From: an uncultured Gammaproteobacteria bacterium
GTDB lineage: Bacteria; Patescibacteriota; Microgenomatia; UBA8517
Direction: 5' to 3'
Assembly (NCBI GenBank): GCA_964541395.1
Contig: CAZIPM010000003.1
Location: forward strand, 24,655-84,496
Length of the DNA: 59,842 nucleotides
Both the position numbers and the translations under genes were made by a program. The notes beneath the pieces are model-generated. The model saw only the letters and a program-made list of their open reading frames with translations, made no database searches and was not told the origin of the DNA. Below are positions 24,411 through 52,632 of the stretch, piece after piece. Each line of letters starts with the position of its first letter. Within the stretch, counting starts at the first letter, position 1.

Positions 24411-26993
24411 TCATTCAATTGCTTTTTCCAATTCTTCAGCCTTATTTAAAGCTTCCCCTGCTTTAACAAATCTTTTTTGTGAGGTGTAAATTGAATTTAA
24501 ATTTCTGAAAACCGTCGGGTTTGGATTTAATTCCCCGCTTCTTTCAAAATAGCTTAATACTTTGTCAATATTTCCCTTCCCGTAATCAATTCTGGCCAGT
24601 TCAAGATAAATTCTGGCTAGTTCTTTTTTGGATTGCAGTTTATTAAAAATTGTCAAAGCTTTTTCAAAAGATTTGGCGGATTCTTCCAATTCTCCATTTG
24701 CAGCTTTTAGTTTTCCTGCAAAAACAGCATTAATCCCTTCCCGGTATCTTCCGACTTCTGACAAGTTGGCATCATTCACACCTTTGAAATGCCCTGTACA
24801 ATTACTTTCGACACCCGCAATCCTTTGTAAATTCTCAGTGATGGTATCCTTTTGAATTGAGAACTGTGAGGATAACTCAAGAATCGGTTTATCATCAGTA
24901 TGGTATTTTAGATTTTGGATAAACGGCTTCAATTCTTGTTCATCAAACAGGCAATGGGCAAAAAGGTCACTGCTGTTTCCGATATCACTTAATTCAAGGT
25001 CACTTTTAACCTTCGGATAGTTTAAGTATTTGTCTACGTTTCCCGCATTAAAAAGTTGGGGTTGGGTTGAACCTATCAGTAACACATCATGAGAAACTAC
25101 CGGCGTCCAAACCGTAACGTAGGGAAAAACAGAGTTAAAGGTAGAAAGCAATGTGTCAAATTCCTCTCCTGTAAATCCATAATACGGCACCCATTGCAGC
25201 ATCAAACCTCCTGCATTTAGGTTGCCTTTGGCTTGCCCAAAAAAATCCCTGGTGTACAAACTGGCATTTCCCCTAACCCACAGGTTAGACGGCTGAGAGG
25301 TAATTACGTCGTATTTAAATTTATCACCAAGTAACCTTTTCCTGGCATCGGCGGCAATTATTCTGACCTTGGGATTTTTTAAAACGTTATTGTTGTATTT
25401 TTCAAAATAGCCTGCTGCCGTAATAACCGACGGCTCTATCTCGACAACATCTACCTCAACACCTTCTACACTTGCCGCAGATCCTGCCGTAATACCGCTT
25501 CCCAGGCCTATCACCAATACATTTCGAGGGTTGGCGTGCAGAAGAAGCGGTAGAAGTCCGATTAACCTCATATCATCCATGTCCTGATCCGTTGAAGAGT
25601 CTGCCTTGCCGTTATTTTTCAAAAACAAATAACCCTCTTTTGCCTTTTTAACCGCAACCGTTGCCGTCAGTCCTTCTTTGTAAAATAAAGTTTTGCTTGT
25701 TTCAGCGATTTGCGGAAGTTGGAGTCCTGACATTTTGTAATCACGTAGATAAAGTGGAACTCCCAAGGCCATCAGATCACCGTCCCATGACGGCCTTGAT
25801 AGTCCGAATACCAATAAGAGTGCTGAAAGAGTCAGGAACAATTTACTTTTGTATTGAAGCACTGCCCCGGTAAGCAAATATATCGTACCGGCCAAAAGTA
25901 TCCCTTTCTGAACTCCCAGAAGCGGAATAATCACAAAAACACTGGCTAGTGAAGCCAAAACGCCAAAAATTGTGTTAATCGCGTAACCTGTTGCTACTTT
26001 TGCCTGGTCAGAGTTGAACTGGTTAATAATCATTGTAAATATAACCCCCATCAGAAACGTAGGCGGAAAAATAATTAACGAACTTAAAAAGACTGTTTTT
26101 AGAATCAATTGTAGATATGAATAATTTACCAGATTCAAGCTGTTAAATAAATATGTTGGCAGATTACCGATTAAGGAAATTGACAGAAAAATTGTTAAAG
26201 TTTCAAGTAACAGTGCATAGGCTAAAAATTTGACCGGTAATTTTGAACCGCTAAAGCCTCCAAGTGATATTCCCAGAAGAAATAATGTTAAAGTTATCAC
26301 AAAGGAAAAGGTGAACGGTCCTGCAGTCATGACCATAGCTCTGGTATACAAAACCTCTAATAGAATTGAGGCAAATCCGGATGCTGCTAGGATGATATAT
26401 AGAGCTTTGAAATTTACAGGTTCTGCTTTTTTATAAATTGCCTGTGTTTTTACGACTTTGAAAACAGACCTCACAGCTAAAATACCGACACTAAAATTAA
26501 TCAAACTTGCAGCCTGTGTGGTTAAATTTAATCCCCAAAAGTAGATCAGGATAAACCCTGAGAGTGCCGCACCCAGTACTGCCCCTAAAGTATTGACAGC
26601 ATACAACAGTCCCGGCTGACCACCTTGTGCTTTAACCAATAAGGGATAGGTCATACCCATCAGTACGGTCGGGATAAAAAGTAAGGGGTATAAAAAATAA
26701 GAGTTTAATGACAAAATCGCCAGAAAACCTATGGCAATTTCAATATACCCGTATGTTTTTAAAGGACTATTTCCCCATTTAGCATTATTACATAGCTTTC
26801 CTCCCAAAAACGATCCCGCTGCCAAACCTGAAAAGTAGATTGCCAAAACAGTACTTACAGCAACCGCGTCAATACCGAACACCAGCCCCAACTTTCTGGT
26901 CCAGATAACCTCATACACCAAGGCAGTAAAACCTGACAGGAAATAAAATAAGTATAACAAGTTATTTTTAACCAAAACGTCTTTACTTTTCAT
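24411..26993 (-). CDS. Fused polytopic membrane domain / spermidine-synthase-like methyltransferase fold / TPR protein
   Basis: 860 aa. It has about 12 N-terminal TM segments. The central part reads VLVIGLGSGITAGSA...VDVVEIEPSVI...IIAADARKRL...YDVITSQPSNLW, a spermidine synthase-like fold. The C-terminal part has TPR-like ARIYLELARIDYGKGNIDKVLSYFERSGELNP. Confidence 0.8.
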   Translation of the reverse strand: MKSKDVLVKNNLLYLFYFLSGFTALVYEVIWTRKLGLVFGIDAVAVSTVLAIYFSGLAAGSFLGGKLCNNAKWGNSPLKTYGYIEIAIGFLAILSLNSYFLYPLLFIPTVLMGMTYPLLVKAQGGQPGLLYAVNTLGAVLGAALSGFILIYFWGLNLTTQAASLINFSVGILAVRSVFKVVKTQAIYKKAEPVNFKALYIILAASGFASILLEVLYTRAMVMTAGPFTFSFVITLTLFLLGISLGGFSGSKLPVKFLAYALLLETLTIFLSISLIGNLPTYLFNSLNLVNYSYLQLILKTVFLSSLIIFPPTFLMGVIFTMIINQFNSDQAKVATGYAINTIFGVLASLASVFVIIPLLGVQKGILLAGTIYLLTGAVLQYKSKLFLTLSALLLVFGLSRPSWDGDLMALGVPLYLRDYKMSGLQLPQIAETSKTLFYKEGLTATVAVKKAKEGYLFLKNNGKADSSTDQDMDDMRLIGLLPLLLHANPRNVLVIGLGSGITAGSAASVEGVEVDVVEIEPSVITAAGYFEKYNNNVLKNPKVRIIAADARKRLLGDKFKYDVITSQPSNLWVRGNASLYTRDFFGQAKGNLNAGGLMLQWVPYYGFTGEEFDTLLSTFNSVFPYVTVWTPVVSHDVLLIGSTQPQLFNAGNVDKYLNYPKVKSDLELSDIGNSSDLFAHCLFDEQELKPFIQNLKYHTDDKPILELSSQFSIQKDTITENLQRIAGVESNCTGHFKGVNDANLSEVGRYREGINAVFAGKLKAANGELEESAKSFEKALTIFNKLQSKKELARIYLELARIDYGKGNIDKVLSYFERSGELNPNPTVFRNLNSIYTSQKRFVKAGEALNKAEELEKAIE

Positions 26994-37421: not shown

Positions 37422-37427
37422 TGCGTA

Positions 37428-40500: not shown

Positions 40501-43500
40501 ATTGTATTCCCATAGTTTCCTGCAGTGGCTTTCTGTCCGTCAAAAATCGATAATCCTCCGTCATTACCTACCGTTGATGAAGCTGTAATTCGCGCGGCAG
40601 AAATGTTAGCCAGATTCCCATTTGAAATAGATGTTATAGGTAATGCAGTATCAATGTCTGCGGTACCTACAATTACGACAAGTCGGTCAGCTCCACTTGT
40701 TGAAGCTCCCGGTTCAGCTCCTGAAGTATCGGATGACGAATCAGTATTCCCACTTGTTACATCCCAAGGATTTCCCGACGTTTCAATACCTGTCCAGGCA
40801 CAGATTGCTCCGATTTGATGATTACCTGAGTCAGATACTGTCGGAGCAGTTTGTGTTCCATTATAACGACTCCAGAATACTGTCAATCTGGTTCCCGTTA
40901 CGCTTTGAGGGCTATTTGTCACTTCAGTCCAAGTTCCACCGGCACTGTCGCTGACTGTTATAGCTTGGGCATCTGTTTCTATAAACAGAAGGAGTATATC
41001 GTTGGTAGTCAGCCCGGAAGGTAATGGTGCACTTACAGCATTTACTGAGGCAAATTGTGTTCCACAAGCCACAAAAGTTGGCAGTGCAGCGAGTGTTTCA
41101 CCTATTCTGGGTGGAAATCGAGGTTTATTCCAGATGATGGGAAATCCTGATAATAACCATGATGCAATTAAAGATGAAATTATCACTATCTTAAAAACCT
41201 TTTTGAAAGTTCTCTTGTTTCTTCTGGCAAAATATATTAGAACAAATACTGTAAATACTACAATTAATAGAAGTATAATCTTCAATGTTTCCATCGAAAC
41301 CTGGCTAACTCCACTAACGACCACTTTTTGCACCACCTCTGCACTGGCTAATGCGTCTCTGGGTGTGAATGATTTAAACAAGCTGGCCATGGAATGGTTT
41401 TCCTCCCCCATCCTTTCAACTCTGACTTGGACAGGAAGATCAGATATTGATCCTGTTTTGACACTCATTCCAAGGTAAGAAATTGTCACTGAAGAGACTA
41501 GAAGTACAAGTAATACTAAATTGCCAACATACCTATTCATCTTAGGTTTTATAGAAAATGAGTCAAAAGTGTTATGAGCAGTTTTAAGTTCTAAAAAATT
41601 CATATCCAAAGCGGGAATTTTGTTGGGAATAATCCCTTGAATAAATCGGTAAAATTTTCCCCGGATGAAAGTATCCGTTATTCTTCCTGTTTTAGGTGTC
41701 CTGAACCAAGGTCCCTCATGTGATTGGATGAATCCTTTGACAGCAGAATATGCCTGGAAAGGAGCAACCAAATATGAAAGGGCTATAAATGAGCCAAGAC
41801 CGGAATAGTCTTTATGTTCCGACTCCTCCAAAAATAGGCCAACTGCATTAGTCAGGGGAAGAGAAATCATATTAGTTAAAACCAAACTCCAACCCCAAAG
41901 TTCAGTCCAAAAGGGCAAACGTACTTTAAAGATAGCTTCAGATACCAACCAGCTGAATGTTCCAATCAAAAAAAACAGTGCTTGAAGATAGTATGGAGTT
42001 AAATAGATAAGTTCAAATTTTTCAAAGATTGATAAATGATTTGAAAAAAGAAGCTTGAAAAACATCTTTTTAACATTGAATGAATGCCCTTCCGCCCAAC
42101 GCATTCGTTGTCTTATTAAGCGGTTTAATGTAGACACACATTCGGCAGGTGCCTGAATGTAGGGAGTGTATAAAACCTTGAAGCCTTTTTCATATAACTT
42201 TAAAGTGAGTTCAAAGTCTTCAGTAATAGAAGATCCCCAACCAACACTCTCTAATGCATCCCGTCGTATCATATAGACAGATCCTGAAACCTGCTTTAAT
42301 CCCCCATAAATTTCAATTCCTGAGCGTTCTACTATATATGAACCGGCATATTCGGATCTGACACCTCTTGTTATCCAGTTTTCAGATTTATTAAGAACAT
42401 GCCATTGGTAGCCTTGTACAACTGCAGTTTTCGGATCATTTTGTGTTTGGAAATATTTCAAAAATAAAGTCAAAGTGTCAGGATACGGTACAAAATCTGC
42501 ATCAAATACTGCAATCTTTTCGGTTTTAGGATCAGATAAACTAAGAGCCAGTTTGAGCGCTTGTCCTTTATATCCGCTCCTTGTATTTCTATGAAGATGT
42601 TTGAAGGTTACTCCAGGCTTAACTTCGATTTCTGTCATCTCCCAACCATCTCCGTTTGTCACCGTCAAACTTTCTTCCTTAAAAAGGTATCGTTTTTGGT
42701 AGTTTTTAATTAATTCACTTGTTTCATCTGTCGAATCGTCTGCTAAAATAATTTCATAATTCGGATAATCAAAAGAAGTTAAAGCTTGGGATAATCTTTC
42801 AACAACATTTTTTTCGTTATATAAAGCAACATGAACAGAAACAAATGGCTTATTTATAAGAACTATATTGTCGAGGTTTGACTCAAGCCCTAATATCTTT
42901 GAATCGTTTAAATTCTTATTACCTAACAACCAATTTAGTAAACTCCCCCTTATACTTTCTTTAATATTTTTCTTTTTTAAATCTTGTTGGGAATATGAAA
43001 GAACTATGGCAAGGGTTAGATAATATTTAAGTGAATACAAAAAGAAAAATGATCCCATAATTAGTGATATTCCTGCGAACATCATCCCTACTGAATTAAT
43101 AATTGGTAATATCTTAAAAATCGTTAAAAATATAAAAAGGCTAAAATATGAAGACAAAATGAAGTAAAGCCATAATTTACTTCTTTTGAGAGGTGGAGCT
43201 GGTGCTACATTTGGTACAAACTGTTCTGTAATAGATCTATCTCTATCAATAACTTGTGATTCTGTAGCCGCAACAGGTTCAGTGCGATGTGATACCGAAT
43301 ATGCCATGCGATTAGACATTTTATTCAGATTGTTCCTGTCCATTATTTTCCAGATAGTCCAACTTGATACCTGAACTATCCCTGCAATTTGCTTTGCAGT
43401 TAAATTGGGATTATTTACTACCATAGATAGTACTTCCTCTTCAATCCTCGGATATACTGCTTTGTGGTGGTCATCTCCTCGTCTGTATTTATCTAAATAT

Positions 43501-44000
43501 TCAATATTACTTTGATAGTCTTTTACCCATTTATATATAATGTTACGGGAAACATTGTAATTTCTTGCTAGCTCAGATACGTTTCTCGAATCCTGAAGGC
43601 ATTTGGTCACTATTTCCTTTTTAACATCAGGCTTAAATCTACCAGGGCCTAAATAGTTTCTGCAATAGTTGAGCCTAGTATATTCATCAGTTAACCCTAA
43701 TTTATTTAAATAATTCTGTACATCAAATGAACTTATATGAAAATTCATTTCCCTAAGATGAGTAGAATATTGCTCAGAAGTAAATTTAGGAGATTTACAT
43801 ACCAGTCGTATCAGAATCTTATATACTTTTTTGTCAAACAAAGTAGGTTTAGGCTCTGGTGATTTACTATTTTTTGAATCAACCAGGCATTTATATATAG
43901 TACCCCTGGCTACATTATATTCTCTGGCCAGAGAGGCTATAGAAGCTTGTTTGACTTCAAGTCTTTTTAATATATCCAGTTTTGAATAGGCAGATAACAT
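37578..44000 (-). CDS. Giant 2: fusion of HTH(x3)-TM-processive GT2 synthase-TM-ectodomain-VPENP C-terminal sorting signal; no adjacent exosortase
   Basis: 2140 aa.
- HTHs at aa 1-235: YNVARGTIYKCL, YNVSRNIIYKWVKDY, VSSWTIWKIMDRNNL.
- GT2 at aa 384-639 (nt 42084-42851): ADDSTDE, VFDADF, SITEDFE, RQRMRWAEGH.
- Extra TM pair near aa 880-950 (IILLLIVVFTVFVLIYF, then VIISSLIASWLLSGFPII).
- Ectodomain with the Asp-box KSTDGGKNW (39207-39233).
- C-terminus TVPENP-FLLLGLYPIL-KKFASRFKKKKKIIV. Confidence 0.88.
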   Translation of the reverse strand: MLSAYSKLDILKRLEVKQASIASLAREYNVARGTIYKCLVDSKNSKSPEPKPTLFDKKVYKILIRLVCKSPKFTSEQYSTHLREMNFHISSFDVQNYLNKLGLTDEYTRLNYCRNYLGPGRFKPDVKKEIVTKCLQDSRNVSELARNYNVSRNIIYKWVKDYQSNIEYLDKYRRGDDHHKAVYPRIEEEVLSMVVNNPNLTAKQIAGIVQVSSWTIWKIMDRNNLNKMSNRMAYSVSHRTEPVAATESQVIDRDRSITEQFVPNVAPAPPLKRSKLWLYFILSSYFSLFIFLTIFKILPIINSVGMMFAGISLIMGSFFFLYSLKYYLTLAIVLSYSQQDLKKKNIKESIRGSLLNWLLGNKNLNDSKILGLESNLDNIVLINKPFVSVHVALYNEKNVVERLSQALTSFDYPNYEIILADDSTDETSELIKNYQKRYLFKEESLTVTNGDGWEMTEIEVKPGVTFKHLHRNTRSGYKGQALKLALSLSDPKTEKIAVFDADFVPYPDTLTLFLKYFQTQNDPKTAVVQGYQWHVLNKSENWITRGVRSEYAGSYIVERSGIEIYGGLKQVSGSVYMIRRDALESVGWGSSITEDFELTLKLYEKGFKVLYTPYIQAPAECVSTLNRLIRQRMRWAEGHSFNVKKMFFKLLFSNHLSIFEKFELIYLTPYYLQALFFLIGTFSWLVSEAIFKVRLPFWTELWGWSLVLTNMISLPLTNAVGLFLEESEHKDYSGLGSFIALSYLVAPFQAYSAVKGFIQSHEGPWFRTPKTGRITDTFIRGKFYRFIQGIIPNKIPALDMNFLELKTAHNTFDSFSIKPKMNRYVGNLVLLVLLVSSVTISYLGMSVKTGSISDLPVQVRVERMGEENHSMASLFKSFTPRDALASAEVVQKVVVSGVSQVSMETLKIILLLIVVFTVFVLIYFARRNKRTFKKVFKIVIISSLIASWLLSGFPIIWNKPRFPPRIGETLAALPTFVACGTQFASVNAVSAPLPSGLTTNDILLLFIETDAQAITVSDSAGGTWTEVTNSPQSVTGTRLTVFWSRYNGTQTAPTVSDSGNHQIGAICAWTGIETSGNPWDVTSGNTDSSSDTSGAEPGASTSGADRLVVIVGTADIDTALPITSISNGNLANISAARITASSTVGNDGGLSIFDGQKATAGNYGNTILTYTGNTLKGMMSIALRSPTATSQTSHRFRTDDGSETTATWKDDENTDAYYVGPTEIIRLRIEAHSTVSMTLNARLEYSTDATNCNNGTWTALDTSTTAWRVTNSSNITNDDATTNQLTTSNKTFTAGNIFDTQNEDTTGVALNETQSEWEWAIQGTGSFQSTVYRFRISDAGTALSSYDNCPLIVTATTGGYHQPYYRIRSDDTLTLNDTVGWAADLNTYATMDAGKRFRIRFEVEQPNGTGSSTSWKLQYRFRTSTGLWGSWADSPDRAEAGYDGPLQVLDSNQYADGDAANQNILAGSAETFDTGGTGEENRTTGAITISNEHAEYEFTIMILGTWGGPNRMKDNNQLEFRLSESAGTLFTGIMMNPRITVNMPDYFLSPSMMETTGRAGPFKDTNGNLYFMIEPTYIAGTGNNEPEMLKSTDGGKNWDLVGTSGSPTVNDLEGVDVFQSGDTLHICVQEGTGSLNVTYHTFRLSDHSTNSDTWGIVDEAVVTPGTAPANQTCGIIKRSDGTVVVFYRYSDGTNQRVGYKIRPSSGPPWGTQVNLDTTASTNFVYSGAVLGASDKTHIFYKDDTNEDVLYKSLTSADSLSGSPTTIESDAQATTNSWATTPAVYWTEEGTGNEKIMLGVMDNSDSILYSVTLTNGTPGARKQISATGIRHSPTGTSSNQPVADLVVDSVTDKQYSIFSPTNDADLDYDAAINDGGWTTDTNLLDQLTLEYLKGQLFTHSSGNGGNKVYGYWYESTSGGDSGFSWYGEKVITTFNQSAYRFFQNLDSTSIGPDLAAQDTAADMTADGQVIRLRFLLHVGGNQFDGTGDDFKIQIAERSGTCDTAFSGETYADLSPSAGVIRFYDNPTPTDGSSMTPTGSDPTHSGHTINFQTYEESNNFTGINSIAAGNDGKWDITIVDNSASNGVAYCVRVITSGGGLLDTYTVIPEFTTVPENPFLLLGLYPILKKFASRFKKKKKIIV
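37581..37673 (-). other. C-terminal tripartite sorting signal of giant 2 (IPEFTTVPENP motif, hydrophobic helix, poly-K tail)
   Basis: TVPENP FLLLGLYPIL KKFASRFKKKKKIIV. Nearly identical to the giant 3 signal. Confidence 0.6.
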
Positions 44001-44015
44001 AATGTGTTCAATTTT

Positions 44016-44044: not shown

Positions 44045-44177
44045 TGGCCTTTAATTTTACAGGCTGCTCCTTAAATATTTTTTACATAGGTAACATAAGT
44101 ACAACTAAACTATCAAACAACATCAGATAGGCACCATGGTTAATTACTTATGTAAAAAACTATAACGAAAATGCTAC

Positions 44178-44206
44178 TTGACAAGTCCTCTAGTTAATAC
44201 TAAATT
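44178..44206 (+). promoter_or_regulatory. Sigma70-like promoter of the 44230..45345 ATPase
   Basis: TTGACA (44178-44183), 17 nt, TAAATT (44201-44206), 23 nt, ATG (44230). Confidence 0.5.
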
Positions 44207-44229
44207 ACAGGAATAGTATCCTTTAAATT

Positions 44230-45345
44230 ATGATAATTAACAGGAAGATTGAGCCTGCTATAATAAATAGACTTTTTCAAGGAAAAGTTATAGTAATCTA
44301 TGGTCCAAGGAGATCAGGTAAAACTACTTTAGTCAAAAATATTCAAGGAATGTATCATTCGGAAAGTATATATTTAAACTGTGACGAACCTGACATACGC
44401 CAAGCTTTAACAGATAAAACATCTACTGAACTTATAAATTATGTCGGTAAGAATAGACTGGTAATAATTGACGAGGCTCAGAGAGTTAAAAATATCGGAA
44501 TTACACTAAAACTTCTGGTGGATAATTTTCCGCAAACTCAAATTATAGCCACAGGCTCCTCATCTCTTGACCTTTCAAATAAAATAAATGAACCTTTAAC
44601 GGGACGTGTACTTGACTTTTTCCTACCTCCTTTTTCACTTAAAGAGATATCTGAAGATAAAATTGAAGCTATAAGAAATCTTGAACAAAGAATGATCTAT
44701 GGAAGTTACCCTGAAGTAGTGATGGATATCAAAAATGCGGAAGAAAATATTAGAGAAATATTTAAAAAATATCTTTACAAAGATGTATTAGAATATCAAG
44801 GGATTAAAAATCCCGATGTACTGGAGAAACTTTTAACAGCTTTGGCTCTTCAGATCGGATGTGAAGTTTCTTATCCTGAGCTTGCAACGCTTCTCCAGAT
44901 TGATCAAAAAACTGTAGCTTCGTATGTACGACTTCTTGAATTTGCATTTATTATTTTCAGATTACCTCCACTTTCCAGAAACCTCCGTAAAGAAATTGCC
45001 AAATCAAGAAAGATATATTTCTGGGATTTAGGCATTCGAAATGCAGCAATAAATAACTTTAATTTGTTGGAAATGAGATCAGATGTTGGAAACTTGTGGG
45101 AAAGTTTTTTAGTCTCAGAAAGAATGAAAACAAACCAAATCCTAAGAAAGTTTCCAAATAAATATTTCTGGAGAACTTGGAGTAAAGAAGAAATTGATTA
45201 TATTGAAGAAGAAGGTGGAACTTTTAGTGCTTTTGAAATTAAATGGTCAAAATCAAACAAAAAACCATCAAAAGTGTGGACTGATGCATATCCAAATTCA
45301 GATTGGAAAGTAATTACAAAAGAAAACTTTTTAGATTTTATTTGA
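44230..45345 (+). CDS. AAA+ ATPase with DUF4143/PD-(D/E)xK-like C-terminus (COG1373 type)
   Basis: 371 aa. Walker A IYGPRRSGKTT, Walker B LVIIDEAQ, C-terminal EIDYIEEEGGTFSAFEIKW. Its 3' end overlaps the convergent exosortase gene by 15 nt. Confidence 0.85.
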   Translation: MIINRKIEPAIINRLFQGKVIVIYGPRRSGKTTLVKNIQGMYHSESIYLNCDEPDIRQALTDKTSTELINYVGKNRLVIIDEAQRVKNIGITLKLLVDNFPQTQIIATGSSSLDLSNKINEPLTGRVLDFFLPPFSLKEISEDKIEAIRNLEQRMIYGSYPEVVMDIKNAEENIREIFKKYLYKDVLEYQGIKNPDVLEKLLTALALQIGCEVSYPELATLLQIDQKTVASYVRLLEFAFIIFRLPPLSRNLRKEIAKSRKIYFWDLGIRNAAINNFNLLEMRSDVGNLWESFLVSERMKTNQILRKFPNKYFWRTWSKEEIDYIEEEGGTFSAFEIKWSKSNKKPSKVWTDAYPNSDWKVITKENFLDFI

Positions 45346-45921
45346 ATTTTTGTAGTCAATAAATTTTTCATCCAGAACATAAGTATAGCTAAACCACCAG
45401 AATGTGATCAGCCAAATAAGTGTTAGAAATGCAGCAAAGTAGTCATGAATTATCTGAGCTGCAAGCGAATTGATGTAATAAATTCCTATGGCTATAATAC
45501 TCATCCTGAAAATGTTAAGAAGAAGTGTTCCAAAAAGACCCAGTGCTACACACTTTGCTCTAGATAGATTAGTATAGTTACCTTTAAGACCAGCAACCAA
45601 AGAAACAATGAGAAGCAAAGCTGACTGCCAACCCAAACAGTTCCAAGACAGATCAACAGGTATACTTGTCCCTTTCTTAATCATATAGAAGGTTGAAAGC
45701 CTGGAGTTGGGAGTTACCCTTGAATCAATACCAAATGGAGAAATGGCAACTGCCACCATTCTTGCCTGCCAAGGAACTATATACTTTTGAATCGGACGCC
45801 ACCAACCTGCATGATTTAACCCTTCCGTAAAAAAAGAATTCATTGCAGCAAAAACAGGAAGAAGTGTCATGACAATTACAAATCCAGCCAAAATAGTTTT
45901 GAATGTTTTCTTTTGTTCCAT
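45331..45921 (-). CDS. Minimal exosortase/archaeosortase-family protein (putative transpeptidase for giant 3 and probably giant 2)
   Basis: 196 aa with about 5 TM segments. Motifs: WNCLGWQS (CxGxxS), LLNIFRM (NxxR), IHDY (His). It shares PIQ..IVP, C[IL]GWQS, NIFR and IWL..FWW with the 28318..28884 product. Its start lies 3 nt after the giant 3 stop. Confidence 0.65.
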   Translation of the reverse strand: MEQKKTFKTILAGFVIVMTLLPVFAAMNSFFTEGLNHAGWWRPIQKYIVPWQARMVAVAISPFGIDSRVTPNSRLSTFYMIKKGTSIPVDLSWNCLGWQSALLLIVSLVAGLKGNYTNLSRAKCVALGLFGTLLLNIFRMSIIAIGIYYINSLAAQIIHDYFAAFLTLIWLITFWWFSYTYVLDEKFIDYKNSNKI

Positions 45922-45924
45922 AAC

Positions 45925-48900
45925 TTATAGTACTGCTTTCTTTTTCTTCTTTATTCTTTTAATCAGTTTATTAAACAAAGGATAAAGACCAAGAAGTAGT
46001 AGTGGATTTTCAGGAACAGTTGTAAATTCCGGAACTACTGTATATGTTTCAAGAACCGAGTTATCAGATCTAACTACTCTTAAGCAGTAAGTGGTATTGT
46101 CTGCTGCTGCATTATCTTCAATAGTAAAGTCCCATTTACCATCTTCCCCTGCTCCAATTATAGCTTGTGAATTAGTAAAGTTGTTTGCTTCTTCATATGT
46201 CTGATTTCTATTTGTATGACCATGCGTGGGATCATTGGTATTATTGGTTAGTGCTGCGCCGTCAGTAACTCCACCTCCGTTATTATCAAAGTATCTAATG
46301 TTTCCGGATGAGGGAGATAAATCGGAATATGATTCGTCGGTAGTTCCCATATTAGTGTCACATGTTCCTCCAACTTTGGAGGCAATTTGAATTTTAAAGT
46401 TATCACCCGATGATGCTAATTGGCTTCCTCCTATATGGAGCTGTAATCTCATTCTGATGACCTGACCATCTGATGTCATCCCAGCAGCGGTATCTTGGTT
46501 GGCAAGTACGGCACCGACATCTGTAGAATTGTTGTTATAAAAAAATCGGTAAGTAGATAAATCATAATAAGTAACTACTTTTTCATCATAACGAGCAAAA
46601 CCCGTTGCACCGGCGGACCCGTCGTCCCAAACATAACCAACAACTTTCGCGCTACCGTTACCGGCACTATGGGTAAACAACTGCGCCCGGAGCCAATCGG
46701 CTCCATTCGTCGGATCTTTTTCCTGAACATCCGTAGTCCAGCTCCCGGATACCCGGGTATCGTAATAGATATCATCGGCATCCGTACTATTAGCAAACAA
46801 CGCATGGAGCTTGTCTGTTGCATCATCCGCCGCGATGTCTGCTATCGGTTCTCCGTTTTGTCCCTCCTGAAACTGTATCGCCGCGTCGCTGACCACGGTT
46901 TCGGAGGGAGACGGTGTATCTCCTATCGCCCAGGTGGAAATGTATAATTTGTTGTCATCGATATCCCTGTACGAAACACCAACCCGTTCCGTGGCTCCAT
47001 CTGTCCAATTGATAAGCGGCGTGAGATCCGCATAATCGCTAGACGTGCTCATGTTGGCGGTAGAGGGGCCATTGATGAGTACCCGTCCGTTGAGCACATC
47101 GCCGGTGGTAAGTGTTTTGACATATATATTGAGTTTACTGCTTGCCATGGCGGTATAGACGATATGGATCCTGTCGGTTGAGTCCCGTATCACGGCAGCT
47201 GCTAAGGTATCGGTCGATGCCGTGGAATCCAGGCGGATCGGAGCCGCCCACGTCCCTCCGGAAGAGCGGATGCTGTACCAGAGCTGTTCATTGGACCCCG
47301 ATAATGCACCCCGGTAAACAGCAATCGTGGTACCGTCACCCCGCCGCACAATTGCGGCTTGCTGCGCGCCAGGGCTCACATCTTCGATCAATTGGTCATT
47401 CACTGCCCAGGTATCCGGGGTCGTAGCATGGGTGGAAACGTTGAACTCATAGTAATTAGCCGAATCACTGTTGTTCGGGCCCTGCATGGTAATATAGAGC
47501 GTATTCCCCCGCAGATCCATATCCGCAGCTTCCAGATCGAACTCCTGGGAAGCAGTGGAAACCCCGACCGGGTTCCATGAGTCCCCGCCGTCCGTTGACT
47601 TCATCATCGCCGGACTGTTGCTGCCGCTGCCGGTTTGGATATCTGTATACTCGGACAGATAATAGAGATTTTTGTTGCCGTCGACAGCAAAGTAGCGCAT
47701 CGGCGTTTCCATTACCGATCCGCCGATATGGCCGACTCTATTGGAAATCGTGACCGTCGGCGTTTGACTGTAGGTCGTGAGTATCCCACCACCAGAGCGG
47801 CGGAGCCGGAATTTATAGGTCGTCCCATCGGCATTGTGCCCCTGCTCTTCGTAGAGTTTGCGCATCAGGACCGGAAATTCGTATTCCGTATGTGAGGGGT
47901 CTGTAAAGGATACCGACGCTGCCTGATAATCTTCACTCCCGGTTCCGGCGATAAAAGTTGCAGCACTTTGGGACAGCAGGTTAGTTGTGGCCGCGCCATC
48001 GACAAACTGCGCAGACGGGATAACCTGCGCCCCCCATTGCCCGCTGGTGGAACCCGCTGCCCAGGGGGTTGCATTATCCGGACCCCGCCGATAGTCGCCG
48101 TCATTTCTCGAGTACCATAACTCAAACCCTGAAGCGAGTGCGCCGCCGCTGGGGCGTTCGACTTCGAGGCGGATACGGAAATCGTAATCCGGATTGATAC
48201 TTGCGTTTGAATTAAGCGTATTTGCCCAGTCTGCATCGGCATTGGCACTGAGCGCCTTACTGTCATCCGCCCGGATCCGGAACGCGGTCTGAGAAAACGT
48301 CGGGGTCGAGGTGCCGTTCATCCGTATTTCCGCACCCAGTCCGATCCAGTTGGCGCTCGTCGGCGACCAGCTGGCACTGCCGGTTGTTTCGAATGCATCA
48401 CCTCGGTATTGCGTTTCCAACGCCTTGCCCGGATTGGATGTAGCCAGATCATCAAGCTCTGTCCAGTTAGTCCGGAATGTCGTTGCTTCATTGACAGGAT
48501 GGGCAAAGGCGGAAATTGGCCGGTTGTTGGAATCCTGAGCTGAAGCAAAAGGGATCGACCCGCTGGTTGCGGCTGTACCGGTAGCCCGGGCCAGCTGCAC
48601 AAACGCTCCAGAGACGCCGTTTGTTAAATCGACTCCGGAAACGGAAAAAAAGCTCGCAGCCAGTCCGGCCTGCGTAAAGTTCCCGAAATCAAACGTAACC
48701 GTACCATTTTGGGATCCGCTTGCCGCGGCGGCATACAAAAACAACCGTTCCCGATCGAGATATACTTCGTCGATAAGCGTATACGTAATGTTCTGTGTAT
48801 TGGTCACGGTGGGAACCGGTGGACGTTTAGAGGTCGGCGCATGCGCCAGAACAAATACGATAACCATGCCGGAAGTCGGCGGGGTCCAGGCACTGGATTC

Positions 48901-51900
48901 ATACGTCTTGGAATCAGTGCCGGTGTTGATGTCCCCGCTCTGATTGGTAAAAGCCAATGCATTAGTACTCACTGTAAATGTTGGTGTGGCTACAATTTGA
49001 CTTGCTCCGACAAGAGCTGTTGCGGGAATAGTTGCAGTTATAGTTTCCTGAGCGGTTATATTATAAGAAGCAAAAGCGTCAAGTGTAATAGTTACCACAG
49101 TATCACTTGTCCGGGCGACATTTGCTACACTGATATTATTTTTTACGATAGTATCCCAGCCGGTTCCTTCAGATTGAGCTGAGTCTAAACCGGATCTAAT
49201 TTCATCCCGTTGATTATCAAATGTTGATCCGGATGCGACCCAGGTGGTTCCTGTTAGGGTCAGAATAACTGTCTTACCCCCGGTGACGATATCTGATTCA
49301 GCTATACTCGCTGTCACCGTTCCGGTAAGCGCAGCTGTTGGTTCATAAATTGCTGCCAAAATTGTAATTGGGTTTGTATTTGTCCAACCGGTCGACGTAA
49401 CAGTGTCAGAAGTAAGAGTCGCAATACGTGTTTGCACATGTGTGGCTATATTAATATCGAGAGCTCCTGTAGTTGAAGTTATTGTATCAATCCTCTCGGT
49501 ATAGTCTGCATCAGCCGCCTTGGCTGCATCTTCTCCTTCTGATGCCGCAGCTCCAATAAGTAAATACTCACGGGATGGAAGTGAAGAAACTGAAGCTGAT
49601 ATTGCAGCTTGTCCTACTCCGACTTGTTCAATAGCCCAACCTGTACCGTTACCGAAAGTTGCTTCAAAAACCGAAATAATTTTATCGACTTTGGCTGTGC
49701 CCAAAGTCAATGTTATTGAGTCGGTGGTATCGATCTGAGTTGTGACCTTTGTCGCAAACAATCCTACAGTTGAACCATCATCTGCTGCTCCATCTGTTTC
49801 TGTATACTCAGCAATTCTGGTCCAGGTATGCCCGTCTGTATCGGAAATTGAATGCAGTGTACTTGCACCGTCTGCTGTCTGATTATTGTCTGAGGCAGTA
49901 GCAACAAATGCTATTTTACCGACTGTGATATTGGCATCGGGAGATACTGCTACAGTCGTACCGCTTGCATCGTTTGTGTCAGCAAATCCACGGACAGTTA
50001 CGGCTGAAATGGTGGCTTTTGCTTCTTCAATTTTAGGTGGAAATCTGGGCTTATTCCAAAAAACAGGATAGCCTGATAATAACCAGGAAGCAATTAGACA
50101 AGACACAACCACTAATTTAATTGCCCTCTTGAATGTTCTTTTGTTTCTTCTGGCTAAAAATATTAAGGCAGACAATGTAAATATAACGACTAAAGCCAGA
50201 GAAACTTTCAGAGTCTCCATTGAAACCTGTTTGACCCCACTGACAACTATTTTTTGTACTTTGTCCGCACTGGCCAGAACTTCAGTCGGTGAGAATAAAT
50301 TTAACAAAGAAGCCGTAAAATTGCCTTCATCTCCAACCCTTTCTACTCTGGTTTGAATAGGAAGGTCTGCTATTGATCCAGTCTTTATGGTGCTACCCAG
50401 ATATGAAAGTAATATCGATGATAATACTGAGATTATTACAACGAAATTACCAATCAGGCTGTATTTTTTGGGCATAATTTTAAAGGAATCAAATTTACTG
50501 TTGGCTGTTGTTAAAGCTAAGTATTTATAGTCCTCCTTCAGTTCTCCATTAGAACCAATTGGTTTAACCGGCAAGATGCCTGAAATGAAGCGGTAAAATC
50601 TACCTCTGGCAAAGATGTCAGTAATTCTTCCTGTTTTTGGAGTTCTGAACCAAGGACCTTCTTCTTTTTCGATAAATCCTTTAACTGCTGCATATGCCTG
50701 GAAAGGTACTATTATATAGGAGAGGGCCATAAAGCTGCCCAGTCCCAGATAGTCTCTTTCATCCGACTCCTCCAAAAATAACCCTACGGAGTTAAGAAGA
50801 GGAAGAGAAATCATGTTGGTTAAAACCAAGCTCCATCCCCAAAGCTCGGTCCAGAAAGGCAAACGCACTTTAAAGATGGTTTCCGAAATTAACCAGGATA
50901 GAGTTCCTACCATAAAAAACAAGGCTTGAAGGTAATATGGAGTTAAATAGACAAACTCAAATTTCTCAGCTTTGCTAAGATTGGGATTAGTCAAAAGTTT
51001 GCTAAACATCTTTCTGACATTAAAAGAGTGCCCTTCTGCCCAACGCATTCTTTGTCTGATCAGTCTCTTAAGTGTAGAAGCACATTCAGCGGGTGCCTGG
51101 ATATATGGAGTGTAAATTACTTTGTAACCTGCATCATATAATCTTAGGGTCAGTTCAAAGTCCTCTGTAATAGAAGTCCCCCATCCCAGTTCTTCCAGTA
51201 CATCCTTTTTGATCATATAAACGGAACCTGATATTTGTTTTAATCCTCCATAAATTTCAGCACCCGATCTTTCTATGACATAACTTCCTGCATACTCCGA
51301 TCTGACTCCCCTGGTTATCCAGTTTTCAGATTTATTAAGAACATGCCACTGGTAGCCCTGAACAGCCGCTGCTCTTGGATCATTCTGTGCCTGGAAGTAT
51401 TTCAAAAACAAAGTCAGTGAATCAGGGTAAGGCACAAAATCAGCGTCGAATATCGATACTTTTTCGGTTCTGGGATCAGATAATTTTAAGGCCAAATTTA
51501 AAGCGCCACCTTTATAACCGGATCTTGAAGATCTATGAAGATGTTTCAGGGTTACTCCCGGCTTAACTTCAACTTCTGTCAGTGTATACCCCTCCCCTTT
51601 AGTAATTTTCATTTTTTCTCCCTCAAACAAATACCTTTTCATCCTGGTTTGAATAATTTGGGTAGTCTCATCTGTTGAATCATCACACAAAATAACTTCA
51701 TAGGCAGGATAGTCAAACGAAACAGCTGCATGGATGGATCTTTCCACAACATTCTTTTCGTTATAGAAAGGAATCTGGACCGAAATAAAAGGTTTTTTGG
51801 TAAGCTTGATATGAGAAAGATCAGCGGTCAAACCAACAGATGTCTCATTTCCTGTTTTATTCTTTTTAATCAGCCAATCAAGCATGCCACCCGATGCCTG

Positions 51901-52632
51901 ATCAATAATTTTTCCTTCTGTCTCCTTCTGTGAGAATGACAAAACCAAGGCCAAAGTAAAATAATACTTTAAAGAATAAAGGAAGAAGAACGAACCCATT
52001 ACCAATGCCGTTAAGGCAAATGTAATTCCTATTTTATAACCCAGACCACTTCCCGCAGCGTCTCCGTATGCATAACTGCCGATTCCGGCTATTACAATAG
52101 TAGTAAAGAGACTGAGGCTGAATATTGAAAACAATTTGATATAAATATGCCTTTTTTCCGCCGGTATTTTGAAGAAGTCGGAAACTGATACCAGGATTTT
52201 TTCGATAAAGCCGACAACCTGAGTATGTTGACCTGTGGCATATGCCTGTCTTGATTCATAAAGTGAAAGGTTGTGCCTCCTTAAGACGTTCTGTACTCCA
52301 TGATGTCCCACAATTGGCGAGTTTCCTATCTTGGGAAGGTTTTTAACCAGAGTCCTGATGCCCCATTCGGGATGTTGTGAAACCAATGAAAGTATTGATT
52401 CTTCATACTTATCCGGGGTTTGATGCCAATACCTATCAATTATTCTTTCTCTATTAACAAGTTCTGCTTCACCACTAGTCTTTTGTTCTTCTTCCCTCCT
52501 TTTGAGCCACTTATAGATGGTCACCCTACTTACACCATACTTTTTGGCAACTTCAGAGATACTTTGCTTCTGATCTAATACCTCAGAAATCATTAAATTT
52601 CTGGCTTTTGGTGACAGTTCGTTTGGTACCAT
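45925..52632 (-). CDS. Giant 3: fusion of IS481-like HTH module-TM-processive GT2 synthase-TM-ectodomain-VPENP C-terminal sorting signal
   Basis: 2235 aa.
- HTH module at aa 1-130: YGVSRVTIYKWLKRREE ... PEWGIRTLVKNLP ... HGVQNVLRRHNL.
- GT2 at aa 280-535 (nt 51028-51795): CDDSTDE, IFDADF, SITEDFE, RQRMRWAEGH.
- Extra TM pair as in giant 2.
- Asp-box KSTDGGDSW (47575-47601).
- C-terminus TVPENP-LLLLGLYPLF-NKLIKRIKKKKKAVL. Confidence 0.88.
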   Translation of the reverse strand: MVPNELSPKARNLMISEVLDQKQSISEVAKKYGVSRVTIYKWLKRREEEQKTSGEAELVNRERIIDRYWHQTPDKYEESILSLVSQHPEWGIRTLVKNLPKIGNSPIVGHHGVQNVLRRHNLSLYESRQAYATGQHTQVVGFIEKILVSVSDFFKIPAEKRHIYIKLFSIFSLSLFTTIVIAGIGSYAYGDAAGSGLGYKIGITFALTALVMGSFFFLYSLKYYFTLALVLSFSQKETEGKIIDQASGGMLDWLIKKNKTGNETSVGLTADLSHIKLTKKPFISVQIPFYNEKNVVERSIHAAVSFDYPAYEVILCDDSTDETTQIIQTRMKRYLFEGEKMKITKGEGYTLTEVEVKPGVTLKHLHRSSRSGYKGGALNLALKLSDPRTEKVSIFDADFVPYPDSLTLFLKYFQAQNDPRAAAVQGYQWHVLNKSENWITRGVRSEYAGSYVIERSGAEIYGGLKQISGSVYMIKKDVLEELGWGTSITEDFELTLRLYDAGYKVIYTPYIQAPAECASTLKRLIRQRMRWAEGHSFNVRKMFSKLLTNPNLSKAEKFEFVYLTPYYLQALFFMVGTLSWLISETIFKVRLPFWTELWGWSLVLTNMISLPLLNSVGLFLEESDERDYLGLGSFMALSYIIVPFQAYAAVKGFIEKEEGPWFRTPKTGRITDIFARGRFYRFISGILPVKPIGSNGELKEDYKYLALTTANSKFDSFKIMPKKYSLIGNFVVIISVLSSILLSYLGSTIKTGSIADLPIQTRVERVGDEGNFTASLLNLFSPTEVLASADKVQKIVVSGVKQVSMETLKVSLALVVIFTLSALIFLARRNKRTFKRAIKLVVVSCLIASWLLSGYPVFWNKPRFPPKIEEAKATISAVTVRGFADTNDASGTTVAVSPDANITVGKIAFVATASDNNQTADGASTLHSISDTDGHTWTRIAEYTETDGAADDGSTVGLFATKVTTQIDTTDSITLTLGTAKVDKIISVFEATFGNGTGWAIEQVGVGQAAISASVSSLPSREYLLIGAAASEGEDAAKAADADYTERIDTITSTTGALDINIATHVQTRIATLTSDTVTSTGWTNTNPITILAAIYEPTAALTGTVTASIAESDIVTGGKTVILTLTGTTWVASGSTFDNQRDEIRSGLDSAQSEGTGWDTIVKNNISVANVARTSDTVVTITLDAFASYNITAQETITATIPATALVGASQIVATPTFTVSTNALAFTNQSGDINTGTDSKTYESSAWTPPTSGMVIVFVLAHAPTSKRPPVPTVTNTQNITYTLIDEVYLDRERLFLYAAAASGSQNGTVTFDFGNFTQAGLAASFFSVSGVDLTNGVSGAFVQLARATGTAATSGSIPFASAQDSNNRPISAFAHPVNEATTFRTNWTELDDLATSNPGKALETQYRGDAFETTGSASWSPTSANWIGLGAEIRMNGTSTPTFSQTAFRIRADDSKALSANADADWANTLNSNASINPDYDFRIRLEVERPSGGALASGFELWYSRNDGDYRRGPDNATPWAAGSTSGQWGAQVIPSAQFVDGAATTNLLSQSAATFIAGTGSEDYQAASVSFTDPSHTEYEFPVLMRKLYEEQGHNADGTTYKFRLRRSGGGILTTYSQTPTVTISNRVGHIGGSVMETPMRYFAVDGNKNLYYLSEYTDIQTGSGSNSPAMMKSTDGGDSWNPVGVSTASQEFDLEAADMDLRGNTLYITMQGPNNSDSANYYEFNVSTHATTPDTWAVNDQLIEDVSPGAQQAAIVRRGDGTTIAVYRGALSGSNEQLWYSIRSSGGTWAAPIRLDSTASTDTLAAAVIRDSTDRIHIVYTAMASSKLNIYVKTLTTGDVLNGRVLINGPSTANMSTSSDYADLTPLINWTDGATERVGVSYRDIDDNKLYISTWAIGDTPSPSETVVSDAAIQFQEGQNGEPIADIAADDATDKLHALFANSTDADDIYYDTRVSGSWTTDVQEKDPTNGADWLRAQLFTHSAGNGSAKVVGYVWDDGSAGATGFARYDEKVVTYYDLSTYRFFYNNNSTDVGAVLANQDTAAGMTSDGQVIRMRLQLHIGGSQLASSGDNFKIQIASKVGGTCDTNMGTTDESYSDLSPSSGNIRYFDNNGGGVTDGAALTNNTNDPTHGHTNRNQTYEEANNFTNSQAIIGAGEDGKWDFTIEDNAAADNTTYCLRVVRSDNSVLETYTVVPEFTTVPENPLLLLGLYPLFNKLIKRIKKKKKAVL
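45928..46020 (-). other. C-terminal tripartite sorting signal of giant 3
   Basis: VPEFTTVPENP LLLLGLYPLF NKLIKRIKKKKKAVL, read from the translation. Confidence 0.6.

Follow-up and report, generated by a model that had tools for sequence, protein, structure and literature searches.

We analyzed a 59,842-nucleotide stretch of DNA (hereafter, the window) from an ultra-small (CPR) bacterium of the Rifle groundwater site and found that it carries a widespread cassette in three diverged copies. With a probability of roughly 70%, this cassette is a dedicated exosortase system that acts on a membrane-integrated, BcsA-like glycan synthase of the processive GT2 type. The cassette is apparently an undescribed variant of the dedicated exosortase systems. 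That a polytopic GT2 synthase is itself the exosortase substrate had been proposed in the first-pass annotation of this DNA, and the proposal is now supported by a sorting tail that, within the window, only the giant proteins carry, by recurrent pairing of synthase and exosortase genes, and by natural fusions of the two in one chain.

Giant genes and their GT2 synthase core

Three giant genes on the minus strand were delineated from open reading frames and Pfam/NCBIfam matches: G1 (28881..35291; 2136 aa from a TTG start), G2 (37578..44000; 2140 aa), and G3 (45925..52632; 2235 aa). The coordinates of G2 and G3 are as first annotated, whereas G1, originally begun at an ATG at 35129, can be extended to 35291; the gene caller places its start at 35234, and the first helix-turn-helix (HTH) segment is downstream of every one of these starts. 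The three genes are paralogues with approximately 70% DNA identity and an identical domain layout. Recent duplication or gene conversion among them was rejected because their DNA identity is only ~70%. Hydropathy analysis revealed two transmembrane (TM) segments before the GT2 domain and two after it in all three proteins, followed ahead of the ectodomain by one further TM segment in G1 and by three in G2 and G3. Thus, the fused order initially described for these genes (HTH, TM, GT2, TM, ectodomain, and C-terminal signal) was recovered in each of them by Pfam/NCBIfam profiles, motifs, and hydropathy. Apart from the cassettes, the window is an envelope-glycan biosynthesis locus, and neither tRNA genes nor Rfam families were matched within it, so that it offers no direct taxonomic marker.

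The GT2 catalytic core of G1 (32922..33905, minus strand) was assigned by profile matches and motifs, with BcsA as the best fold match of its G3 paralogue. The profiles matched were Glyco_trans_2_3, Glyco_tranf_2_3, and Glycos_transf_2 (Pfam/NCBIfam). In G1, the core motifs on the minus strand are DDSTDE (33771-33788), DADF (33540-33551), TED (33261-33275), and QRMRW (33144-33158), and a gating-loop-like motif, WFRTPKTG (32733-32756, minus strand), was recognized by its position. The motifs DDSTDE, DADF, ITEDF, QRMRW, and WFRTPKTG are each found in G1, G2, and G3, and the GT2 motif columns of alignment A3 are invariant. An AF2 model of the GT2-TM core (G3 aa 151-760) was compared with known structures by Foldseek, which ranked BcsA first, followed by hyaluronan synthases and CesA. 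Thus, D, DxD, TED, and QxxRW occur within a TM-flanked GT-A domain, as is characteristic of BcsA-like processive GT2 synthases. The early expectation of a GT2 enzyme is fully in line with the Glyco_tranf_2_3 match, the complete set of processive-synthase motifs, and the BcsA-like predicted fold. At the equivalog level, neither the CelA cutoff (57-79 bits vs 699) nor the PgaC cutoff (81-89 bits vs 422) was reached. The membrane region that follows the GT2 domain in G1 (32502..33035, minus strand; hydropathy and motifs) comprises two TM segments, an interface helix, the WFRTPKTG motif, and a last TM segment that would lead outward, a topology that we infer from the likeness to BcsA.

The N-termini of the giant proteins match HTH_28, HTH_23, HTH_29, and Tnp_1 (Pfam and NCBIfam). 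In G1, HTH repeats of the transposase N-terminal type, assigned to the cytoplasm, span aa 71-310 (34362..35081, minus strand; matches to HTH_29, HTH_28, and HTH_23) and are not accompanied by a DDE domain. Models of IS481/IS630 transposases are covered only at positions ~2-120 (2-114 in the case of G1), i.e., in their HTH part, and the DDE catalytic domain of these transposases is absent according to the Pfam/NCBIfam profiles, so the giant proteins do not qualify as transposases. The HTH module is lineage-specific: Anaerolineae relatives carry a REC (receiver) domain at this position and other lineages have nothing there. It may serve as a lineage-specific regulatory module in the cytoplasm.

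Sorting signals and mini-exosortases

Each giant protein ends in a candidate sorting signal: FTFVPEKSIWLFPIALFLPKIIPGIKKKW... in G1 (28884..29006), FTTVPENPFLLLGLYPILKKFASRFKKKKKIIV in G2 (37581..37679), and FTTVPENPLLLLGLYPLFNKLIKRIKKKKKAVL in G3 (45928..46026), all on the minus strand. The three tails consist of a VPE motif, a hydrophobic helix, and a K/R tail at the extreme C-terminus, which is the tripartite architecture of PEP-CTERM-type signals. The G2 and G3 tails are near-identical, and tails of the G1 class also adjoin the closest homologues of the neighbouring exosortase-like gene X1 (L007 and L010). Within the window, the tail is confined to G1, G2, and G3. The family motif is [V/I]PE, the second Pro of PEP-CTERM being missing, and a search of five tails against the curated sorting-signal models of NCBIfam (PEP-CTERM, PGF-CTERM, Firmicu-CTERM, and others) gave no relevant match at E up to 10. 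According to the published rule, a PEP-CTERM target begins with a signal peptide and is free of internal TM segments (PMC1569441, PMC3237569). The giant proteins depart from this rule because they are polytopic and have no signal peptide: an N-terminal HTH module is followed by 5-7 TM segments.

Two of the three giant genes adjoin a small gene on the minus strand, which the first-pass annotation had considered exosortase-like. X1 (28318..28884; 188 aa) scores 36.4 bits and X3 (45331..45921; 196 aa) scores 31.1 bits with TIGR04178, the exosortase/archaeosortase signature model, which has a cutoff of 23 bits; many of their homologues carry PF09721. Residues C93, R137, and H157 do not vary among 24 aligned mini-exosortases and correspond to the catalytic Cys/Arg/His of the superfamily, in full accord with the early description of the small proteins. 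The spacing of 0-3 nt originally given between giant and small genes holds for the 3-nt gap between the G3 stop and the X3 start, but the X1 start actually overlaps the G1 stop by 4 nt (ATGA). No exosortase gene adjoins G2, and X3 probably serves both G2 and G3. Compared with the ~8-TM architecture of full-length exosortases (PMC3237569), X1 and X3 have 4-6 hydrophobic segments by hydropathy and about half the size, with the signature domain occupying their C-terminal half. None of the cutoffs for named subfamilies (XrtA-XrtX, CrtC, and others) was reached, the best scores being 20.5 bits vs 170 for XrtX and 17.2 bits vs 225 for CrtC. Clustering at 50% identity divides the mini-exosortase family into 643 groups.

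The reduced size of these proteins relative to canonical exosortases, together with their tight one-to-one gene coupling, would also suit non-proteolytic synthase subunits of the PgaD/BcsB type, with the VPE helix acting as a docking second membrane anchor that undergoes neither cleavage nor transfer; the one-chain fusions described below are as compatible with such a stable complex as with an enzyme-substrate pair. However, the catalytic Cys/Arg/His signature is invariant family-wide, TIGR04178 is passed, and the tail displays the full tripartite architecture of processed signals (PMC3237569), so we consider an accessory-subunit role unlikely.

Ectodomains

The G1 ectodomain (aa 931-2095; 29007..32501, minus strand) matches no family. 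In G2, an ectodomain module (aa 1360-1934; 38199..39923, minus strand) was modeled by AF2 with pLDDT above 90 as a β-sandwich plus a sialidase-like β-propeller, and a Foldseek search with the model retrieved GH145, PL24/25/42, and sialidases with E = 1e-8 to 1e-10. The G3 copy of this phage-tail-like β-sandwich/propeller module (aa 1446-2020; 46573..48297, minus strand) was included in alignments A2 and A4; the module-bearing regions of G2 and G3 are 40% identical over about 780 aa. Asp-box motifs (SxDxGxxW), which mark Asp-box β-propellers, are present in G2 and G3 only. By sequence, the ectodomains matched nothing in Pfam (E up to 5) or in the PDB, including the Pfam BNR/sialidase families. 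The BNR/sialidase likeness suggested at first therefore stands at the fold level (AF2/Foldseek) for G2 and G3, but neither as a Pfam match nor for G1. One homologue of the G2/G3 module carries PF13088. A relationship of the G1 ectodomain to the G2/G3 module was rejected: the hhalign probability was only 2.7%, and the G1 ectodomain was therefore treated as unrelated.

Relatives of the G2/G3 module were identified in phage contigs, for example as the product of the gene directly after the tape-measure gene in L090/L091. This phage link comes only from metagenomic and IMG/VR contigs; the IMG/VR scan was seeded with alignment A4, as alignment A2 was too divergent for a seed, and tblastn searches of GenBank phages matched neither ectodomain type. 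In G2 and G3, the ectodomain would be a β-propeller akin to lectins or glycanases, of a type that phages build into their tail devices. Hydropathy and likeness to BcsA place the ectodomains, by inference, outside the membrane. In the relative L036, RNA-polymerase αCTD-like repeats occupy the 'ectodomain' position, which is unexpected for an extracellular site and counts against outside placement. The ectodomains differ among the three paralogues, suggesting surface variation or partner recognition.

Recurrence of the cassette and genomic neighbours

A survey of GTDB species representatives yielded 289 mini-exosortase loci. For 60 exosortase genes, 3 kb or more of sequence was available upstream; 42 of them (~70%) are preceded on the same strand by a tail-bearing or GT2 ORF that ends within 3 kb, several more have a tail or GT2 partner in another arrangement, and for about 9, neither a GT2 nor a tail gene lies within 10 kb. 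The pairing of GT2 synthases with mini-exosortases thus recurs over dozens of genomes, a co-occurrence that the first-pass annotation had proposed to survey. A GT2 domain was detectable in 39 of 59 tail-bearing ORFs near exosortase genes, the other 20 being mostly 5'-cut or split. Single-chain fusions of synthase, ectodomain, VPE tail, and exosortase occur naturally in P0274 and P0293, and exosortase, ectodomain, and VPE tail are fused in P0242. Exosortase similarity and tail similarity are weakly correlated (Mantel r = 0.18, p = 0.001), a covariation that is confounded by phylogeny. The three giant genes, which had appeared peculiar, belong to a large family of 894 matches with sizes from roughly 750 to more than 3100 aa. 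The tail ends 82 of the 120 best homologues, most of the others being incomplete, and 16 homologues examined over their full length have the identical layout in frame. The cassette occurs in Patescibacteria (CPR) and Anaerolineae as well as in some MAGs with an archaeal label.

Across G1 and its junctions, the window agrees at 100% or 99.99% identity (at most 1 SNP) with sequences assembled independently from several samples. The architecture is not an assembly artefact. An initial worry was that assembly or annotation had created chimeric giant ORFs by joining a transposase fragment to a GT2 gene and a gene for a surface protein, and one could point to the metagenomic origin of the data, to the similarity of the HTH modules to IS481/IS630 N-termini, and to the GC content of the G3 ectodomain (49% vs 37% for the window). 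The agreement of independent assemblies across the G1 junctions, three ~70%-identical paralogues with one layout, the 16 in-frame homologues and the tail in 82 of the 120 best, and the missing DDE domain make this explanation extremely improbable.

Genes for COG1373-type ATPases (AAA_14+DUF4143) lie next to the cassettes at 26983..28242 and 36294..37421 on the minus strand and at 44230..45345 on the opposite (plus) strand, and a fourth is located at 58312-59628. The ATPases had been listed as part of the array; co-occurrence at only 4 of 82 related loci led us to exclude them as a cassette component and to regard the three as mere neighbours. The presence of four such ATPases and an AbiEii fragment within 60 kb, an ectodomain module common to phage tail proteins, and small nuclease genes (PDDEXK_3 and GIY-YIG) inserted in related cassettes would be expected if the region were a mobile or defence island, in which ATPases, HTH 'transposase' modules, and phage-derived ectodomains cooperate, e.g., in phage decoy or exclusion, with a secondary link to exosortase. 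We consider this very unlikely, given that the ATPases are rarely found at related loci, that GT2, tail, and exosortase form the conserved core everywhere, and that the rest of the window is devoted to envelope-glycan biosynthesis.

Proposed function and significance

In the proposed exosortase system, the synthase would extrude a β-glycan via its own channel, and the mini-exosortase (180-200 aa), whose gene is translationally coupled downstream of the synthase gene, would cleave after the VPE motif. By analogy with sortases and archaeosortase A, the new C-terminus would be passed to an acceptor, which could be a lipid, part of the wall, or the glycan under synthesis, giving a surface module with its inner end still tied to the synthase. 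A bolder extension, which we regard as quite unlikely, is that the acyl-enzyme of the mini-exosortase is resolved onto the glycan leaving the channel of that very polypeptide, or onto an adjacent lipid, making the cassette a self-contained producer of protein-polysaccharide conjugates that builds a proteoglycan-like coat with swappable phage-tail-type receptor-binding heads; such a coat could mediate recognition of partner cells by ultra-small episymbionts, and the fused versions would be single-protein coat factories.

To our knowledge, the partner to which exosortases join a target has been an open question since 2006, and the suspected exopolysaccharide link rests on gene neighbourhood only. 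The cassette unites synthase and target in one protein and places the enzyme gene next to it, or all of them in a single chain in some genomes. Its shortest versions, of ~750-800 aa with a ~190-aa enzyme, represent a minimal expressible pair for addressing cleavage, acceptor, and polymer. The proposed system would also widen the published target rule for sorting signals (signal peptide, no internal TM segments) to polytopic enzymes. The analysis further brings to light a large family of CPR surface proteins that has no name so far. Little is understood of the envelopes of these bacteria and of the devices by which they attach to hosts, and some CPR outer domains turn out to be common to phage tail proteins. 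In the open literature, 'exosortase' and 'Patescibacteria' were not found together in any paper, 'exosortase' with 'Candidate Phyla Radiation' retrieved only a hot-spring virus study, and PEP-CTERM combined with cellulose synthase retrieved nothing relevant. No description of the synthase/tail/mini-exosortase pairing was found in the open literature covered, which does not include Haft et al. 2012 (J Bacteriol).

Comparison with known systems

The giant proteins share with the BcsA/PgaC/hyaluronan synthase class the D, DxD, TED, and QxxRW motifs, a gating-loop-like FxTxK motif, and TM helices on either side of a cytoplasmic GT-A domain. In contrast to these synthases, they have no PilZ domain and add an N-terminal HTH module and an ectodomain of 1100-1350 aa with a sorting signal. 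Phage tail-associated β-propeller proteins show 33-52% identity to the G2/G3 module across about 570 aa and have the same order of β-sandwich and propeller; they differ in being free-standing proteins that lack TM segments and a VPE tail, and they carry no signal peptide either.

The PEP-CTERM/exosortase system (EpsH, XrtA; Haft 2006, PMC1569441) is similar in the tripartite signal of P-E motif, helix, and basic cluster, in the homologous Cys/Arg/His membrane enzyme, and in the linkage to polysaccharide loci. Its targets, however, carry signal peptides, lack internal TM segments, and are served in large numbers by one enzyme (PMC1569441), whereas the present cassette pairs each enzyme with a single target, a polytopic synthase. 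Other differences are the enzyme size (~190 aa here vs about 280-500 aa) and the [V/I]PE motif, which has no second Pro. PEP-CTERM hosts are diderm, whereas the hosts of the present cassette include CPR and Chloroflexota. Both of these groups are generally regarded as monoderm.

Archaeosortase A, which acts on PGF-CTERM proteins such as the Haloferax S-layer glycoprotein, belongs to a homologous enzyme family and operates in a single-membrane envelope. It cuts off the C-terminal helix and attaches a lipid, and thus provides the best mechanistic precedent, although its signal has another motif, the enzyme is full-size, and the targets are Sec-secreted proteins rather than synthases. The XrtG system of Firmicutes, in which a Firmicu-CTERM protein and XrtG are encoded with two associated GT2 genes (PMC12854382), is likewise a dedicated exosortase cassette in monoderms with family-2 glycosyltransferases in the operon. 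The NCBIfam models for XrtG and its associated glycosyltransferase matched no protein of the window. Target and glycosyltransferases are distinct proteins in the XrtG system (PMC12854382), whereas the cassette described here combines them in one polypeptide.

Giant synthase genes G1-G3 and their family

Open reading frame analysis recovered the three paralogous minus-strand giant genes described in the first-pass annotation: G1 (28881-35291; 2136 aa from a TTG, with alternative starts at 35234, the public gene call, and at 35129, the ATG chosen in that annotation), G2 (37578-44000; 2140 aa), and G3 (45925-52632; 2235 aa). In each protein, Pfam and NCBIfam models matched both a family-2 glycosyltransferase (GT2) and N-terminal helix-turn-helix (HTH) modules (HTH_28, HTH_23, HTH_29, and HTH_Tnp_1), as anticipated. 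Alignment of the HTH modules to IS481/IS630 transposase models is limited to the initial ~115 model positions, and thus G1-G3 lack a DDE catalytic domain. The best named relatives of the GT2 domains are PgaC and CelA, with scores far under their equivalog cutoffs. The previously noted hallmarks of processive synthases, DDSTDE, DADF, ITEDF, and QRMRW, were all confirmed in the three proteins, together with WFRTPKTG at the position of the BcsA gating loop, and the residues of these motifs are invariant across a 26-member family alignment. For the AlphaFold2 model of G3 residues 151-760 (mean pLDDT 67; GT domain >90), the closest structures were E. coli and Rhodobacter BcsA; an archaeal mannosyltransferase ranked next, and hyaluronan synthases and plant CesA came after it. 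Searching PDB sequences by profile gave a concordant result for the GT2 core.

By hydropathy, two transmembrane segments precede the GT2 domain and two follow it, with one further segment in G1 and three in G2 and G3. The domain order continues with a long hydrophilic region (ectodomain) and ends in a tripartite tail of a VPE motif, a hydrophobic helix, and a K/R cluster, which within the window is carried by G1-G3 only. On the model of BcsA, the amphipathic helix that follows the two post-GT2 segments is probably an interface helix and the WFRTPKTG loop would be cytoplasmic; because an odd number of segments comes next, the large domain would then be external and the K/R tail internal. G2 and G3 carry a second copy of the motif directly ahead of the tail (TV[I/V]PEFTTVPENP; 37659-37690 and 46006-46037).

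The window originates from Rifle aquifer groundwater and is matched by contigs from several independent assemblies at 100% or 99.99% identity across G1, the adjoining small gene X1, and part of G2. Together with the layout shared by relatives, these matches show that the giant genes are not assembly chimeras, a possibility that had been raised against them. One sample's assembly (L002) differs by a single base at 29712 that converts Tyr1860 (TAC) of G1 to a stop codon and splits it into 1841-aa and 238-aa products; either population variation or a sequencing error may account for this change. The paralogs share only ~70% DNA identity and 54-58% protein identity in the HTH-GT2 part, low values indicating that they are old duplicates with the layout kept.

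With the N-terminal 720 aa of G3 as query, 894 relatives were retrieved, chiefly in Patescibacteria (Woesebacteria, Gottesmanbacteria, and Microgenomates among them). The JGI label for these proteins is 'cellulose synthase/PNAG synthase-like glycosyltransferase/transposase', and the NCBI names are only generic ('helix-turn-helix domain-containing protein' or 'glycosyltransferase'). Most of the 16 relatives inspected over their whole length combine HTH, GT2, transmembrane segments, ectodomain, and tail in a single frame. A C-terminal [V/I]PE motif with helix and K/R cluster occurs in 82 of the 120 top relatives, the remainder being mostly truncated at contig ends. Among genome contigs, the length of complete relatives varies between 757 aa and >3162 aa; G1-G3 are large members of a big family rather than oddities.

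Mini-exosortases and their linkage to the synthases

The first-pass annotation reported small exosortase-like genes abutting two of the three giants, and both pass the exosortase/archaeosortase signature model TIGR04178. X1 (28318-28884, minus strand) overlaps the G1 stop codon with its start (ATGA), and X3 (45331-45921, minus strand) starts 3 nt past the G3 stop, an arrangement of translational coupling. None of the named exosortase subfamily models came near cutoff for X1 or X3. Their family comprises 643 clusters at 50% identity, many with PF09721, and its members reach only about half the canonical exosortase length. Three residues are invariant in a 24-member alignment, Cys93 (W-N-C-x-G-W-Q-S), Arg137 (N-I-x-R), and His157 (F-H-D-Y), and they match, at the sequence level, the triad expected for a cysteine transpeptidase of the exosortase family.

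A scan with one genome per species yielded 289 mini-exosortase loci, of which the best 78 were inspected; these belong to Curtiss-, Woese-, Gottesman-, Chisholm-, Daviesbacteria, and other Patescibacteria, as well as to Anaerolineae and MAGs labeled Bathyarchaeota. Synteny is conserved, in agreement with the co-occurrence proposed earlier: 42 of the 60 exosortase genes with enough upstream sequence have a same-strand tail-bearing or GT2 gene ending within 3 kb upstream, several more have one downstream or convergent, and ~9 are orphans. A GT2 domain was detectable in 39 of 59 tail-bearing genes near mini-exosortase genes, the other 20 being mostly 5'-cut or split fragments. Small genes are repeatedly inserted between the tail gene and its mini-exosortase (GIY-YIG, PDDEXK_3, or ORFs of ~130-220 aa), as in L007 (5679-5942), L009 (314-712), L013, L018, L022, and L024.

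The tail class appears to track the enzyme class. X1-like enzymes adjoin FTFVPEK...FLP[KR]I tails (L007, L010), and the L061 exosortase adjoins an FTTVPENP...GLYP tail resembling those of G2 and G3. Enzyme and tail similarities were correlated (Mantel r = 0.18, p = 0.001, 56 pairs), with a contribution from phylogeny. G2 has no enzyme of its own, and the near-identity of its tail to that of G3 suggests that X3 probably serves both. Two proteins, P0274 (946 aa) and P0293 (1227 aa), unite the synthase and ectodomain with an IEVPEN tail and a mini-exosortase in a single chain, and P0242 (458 aa) joins a mini-exosortase to an ectodomain with an IIVPE tail. These natural fusions provide the strongest argument for enzyme-target linkage, and comparative evidence lends good support to the earlier central proposal that the exosortase target is a polytopic glycan synthase.

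Two or three cassettes, each a GT2-tail gene with a mini-exosortase, were also observed in Woesebacteria RBG_16_42_24 (L014 and L083, one contig), MHCL01 (Chisholmbacteria), and DATEUZ01, sometimes in tandem (2198-aa and 1946-aa genes ~10 kb apart), indicating that arrays are recurrent.

Variable outer and N-terminal domains

The G1 ectodomain is unrelated to those of G2 and G3, which share 40% identity over their C-terminal ~780 aa. None of the three matched Pfam or PDB sequences. The BNR/sialidase-like ectodomain foreseen in the first-pass annotation was therefore not recovered by Pfam, but it holds for G2 and G3 at the fold level: the first 575 residues of their shared module (38199-39923 and 46573-48297, minus strand) are predicted with pLDDT >90 to fold into a β-sandwich and, after it, an Asp-box β-propeller. 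Matching folds are those of GH145, PL24/25/42 lyases, and sialidases as well as of phage structural proteins. The module is homologous to standalone phage proteins (33-52% identity); almost all of its sequence homologs are standalone, without a signal peptide or VPE tail. On a 71-kb phage contig, one homolog (L090/L091, 10001-12940) is encoded between the tape-measure gene, which it directly follows, and a collar-domain fiber gene. The module is encoded by 13 IMG/VR contigs (L092-L104), and no match was found in GenBank phages. The G3 ectodomain coding region (46027-50076) has a GC content of 49%, against a window value of 37% and 39% in the HTH-GT2 portion of its own gene, and is near the 49-55% of phage contigs with the homologous module, which could be explained by horizontal acquisition or by amino-acid composition.

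The N-terminal module varies by lineage. HTH repeats are present in CPR, a response-regulator receiver domain replaces them in Anaerolineae (L036 3704-6916, L032 10623-13697), and ~790-aa versions in MAGs labeled Bathyarchaeota have no N-terminal module. This variation is consistent with a cytoplasmic regulatory add-on, like the PilZ domain of BcsA in position but unlike it in kind. In the Anaerolineae protein of L036, synthase and VPE tail are additionally separated by three RNA-polymerase αCTD-like repeats, odd for a presumed extracellular region.

Neighboring genes

The ATPases of the window are AAA_14+DUF4143 proteins, a fourth being encoded at 58312-59628 (minus strand). They had been described as part of the array; however, such COG1373 ATPases occur in just 4 of 82 related loci and are therefore not counted among the components of the system, the window simply being rich in them. 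A MerR-family regulator gene (35802-36107, plus strand), found in all assemblies of the locus, lies ~0.5 kb upstream of G1 on the opposite strand, between G1 and the next ATPase gene. The similarity of a short ORF (16244-16855, minus strand) to the AbiEii toxin model is confined to the initial ~50 model positions; genes of the ATPase and AbiEii kinds are abundant in this part of the genome. The cohesin-domain protein at 54261-55091 (minus strand) starts with a signal-peptide-like segment and terminates in PPIPETG plus a hydrophobic helix, with no basic tail. Such an end is reminiscent of sortase-type (LPxTG-like) signals, and hence a second, different surface-anchoring route may exist at the locus. 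A 1098-aa membrane protein with a PTPS_related domain (PF10131) is encoded at 1316-4612 (minus strand), 24 kb from the cassettes; neighborhoods of XrtG also include a PTPS homolog and a conserved membrane protein, a tentative parallel.

Proposed mechanism and comparison with known systems

We propose that the product of the synthase is a β-linked polymer, which it also extrudes, and that the ectodomain is extracellular. By analogy with sortase and archaeosortase A (ArtA), the mini-exosortase would cut after VPE and move the C-terminus to an acceptor. The candidate acceptors are a lipid, for which ArtA is a precedent, or the enzyme's own glycan, as first suggested from the sequence. Since the N-terminal end of the ectodomain stays joined to the synthase, processing would not free the protein unless a second cut occurred.

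In the open literature, no paper was found linking exosortases with Patescibacteria, an earlier mention in the 2012 archaeosortase paper being possible, and exosortase and Candidate Phyla Radiation were mentioned together only in a hot-spring virus study. The signature model and the catalytic residues place the cassette in the exosortase superfamily; it falls outside all named subfamily models, all curated sorting-signal models, and the signal-peptide rule. According to published descriptions, a PEP-CTERM target begins with a signal peptide and, one small exception aside, lacks transmembrane segments ahead of the tail; one enzyme usually serves many targets, in hosts with outer membranes, and 'dedicated systems' of one enzyme beside one target are already established (PMC1569441; PMC3237569). 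Of the arrangements described, the Firmicutes XrtG cassette comes closest; in it, the Firmicu-CTERM protein, XrtG, and two glycosyltransferases are separate genes (PMC12854382), whereas here the synthase is itself the target. The cassettes appear to constitute a dedicated mini-exosortase system targeting a polytopic glycan synthase, the outer domains of which are swappable and in some cases common to phage tails; dedicated systems themselves being known, the novelty lies in a variant with a glycan synthase as its target.
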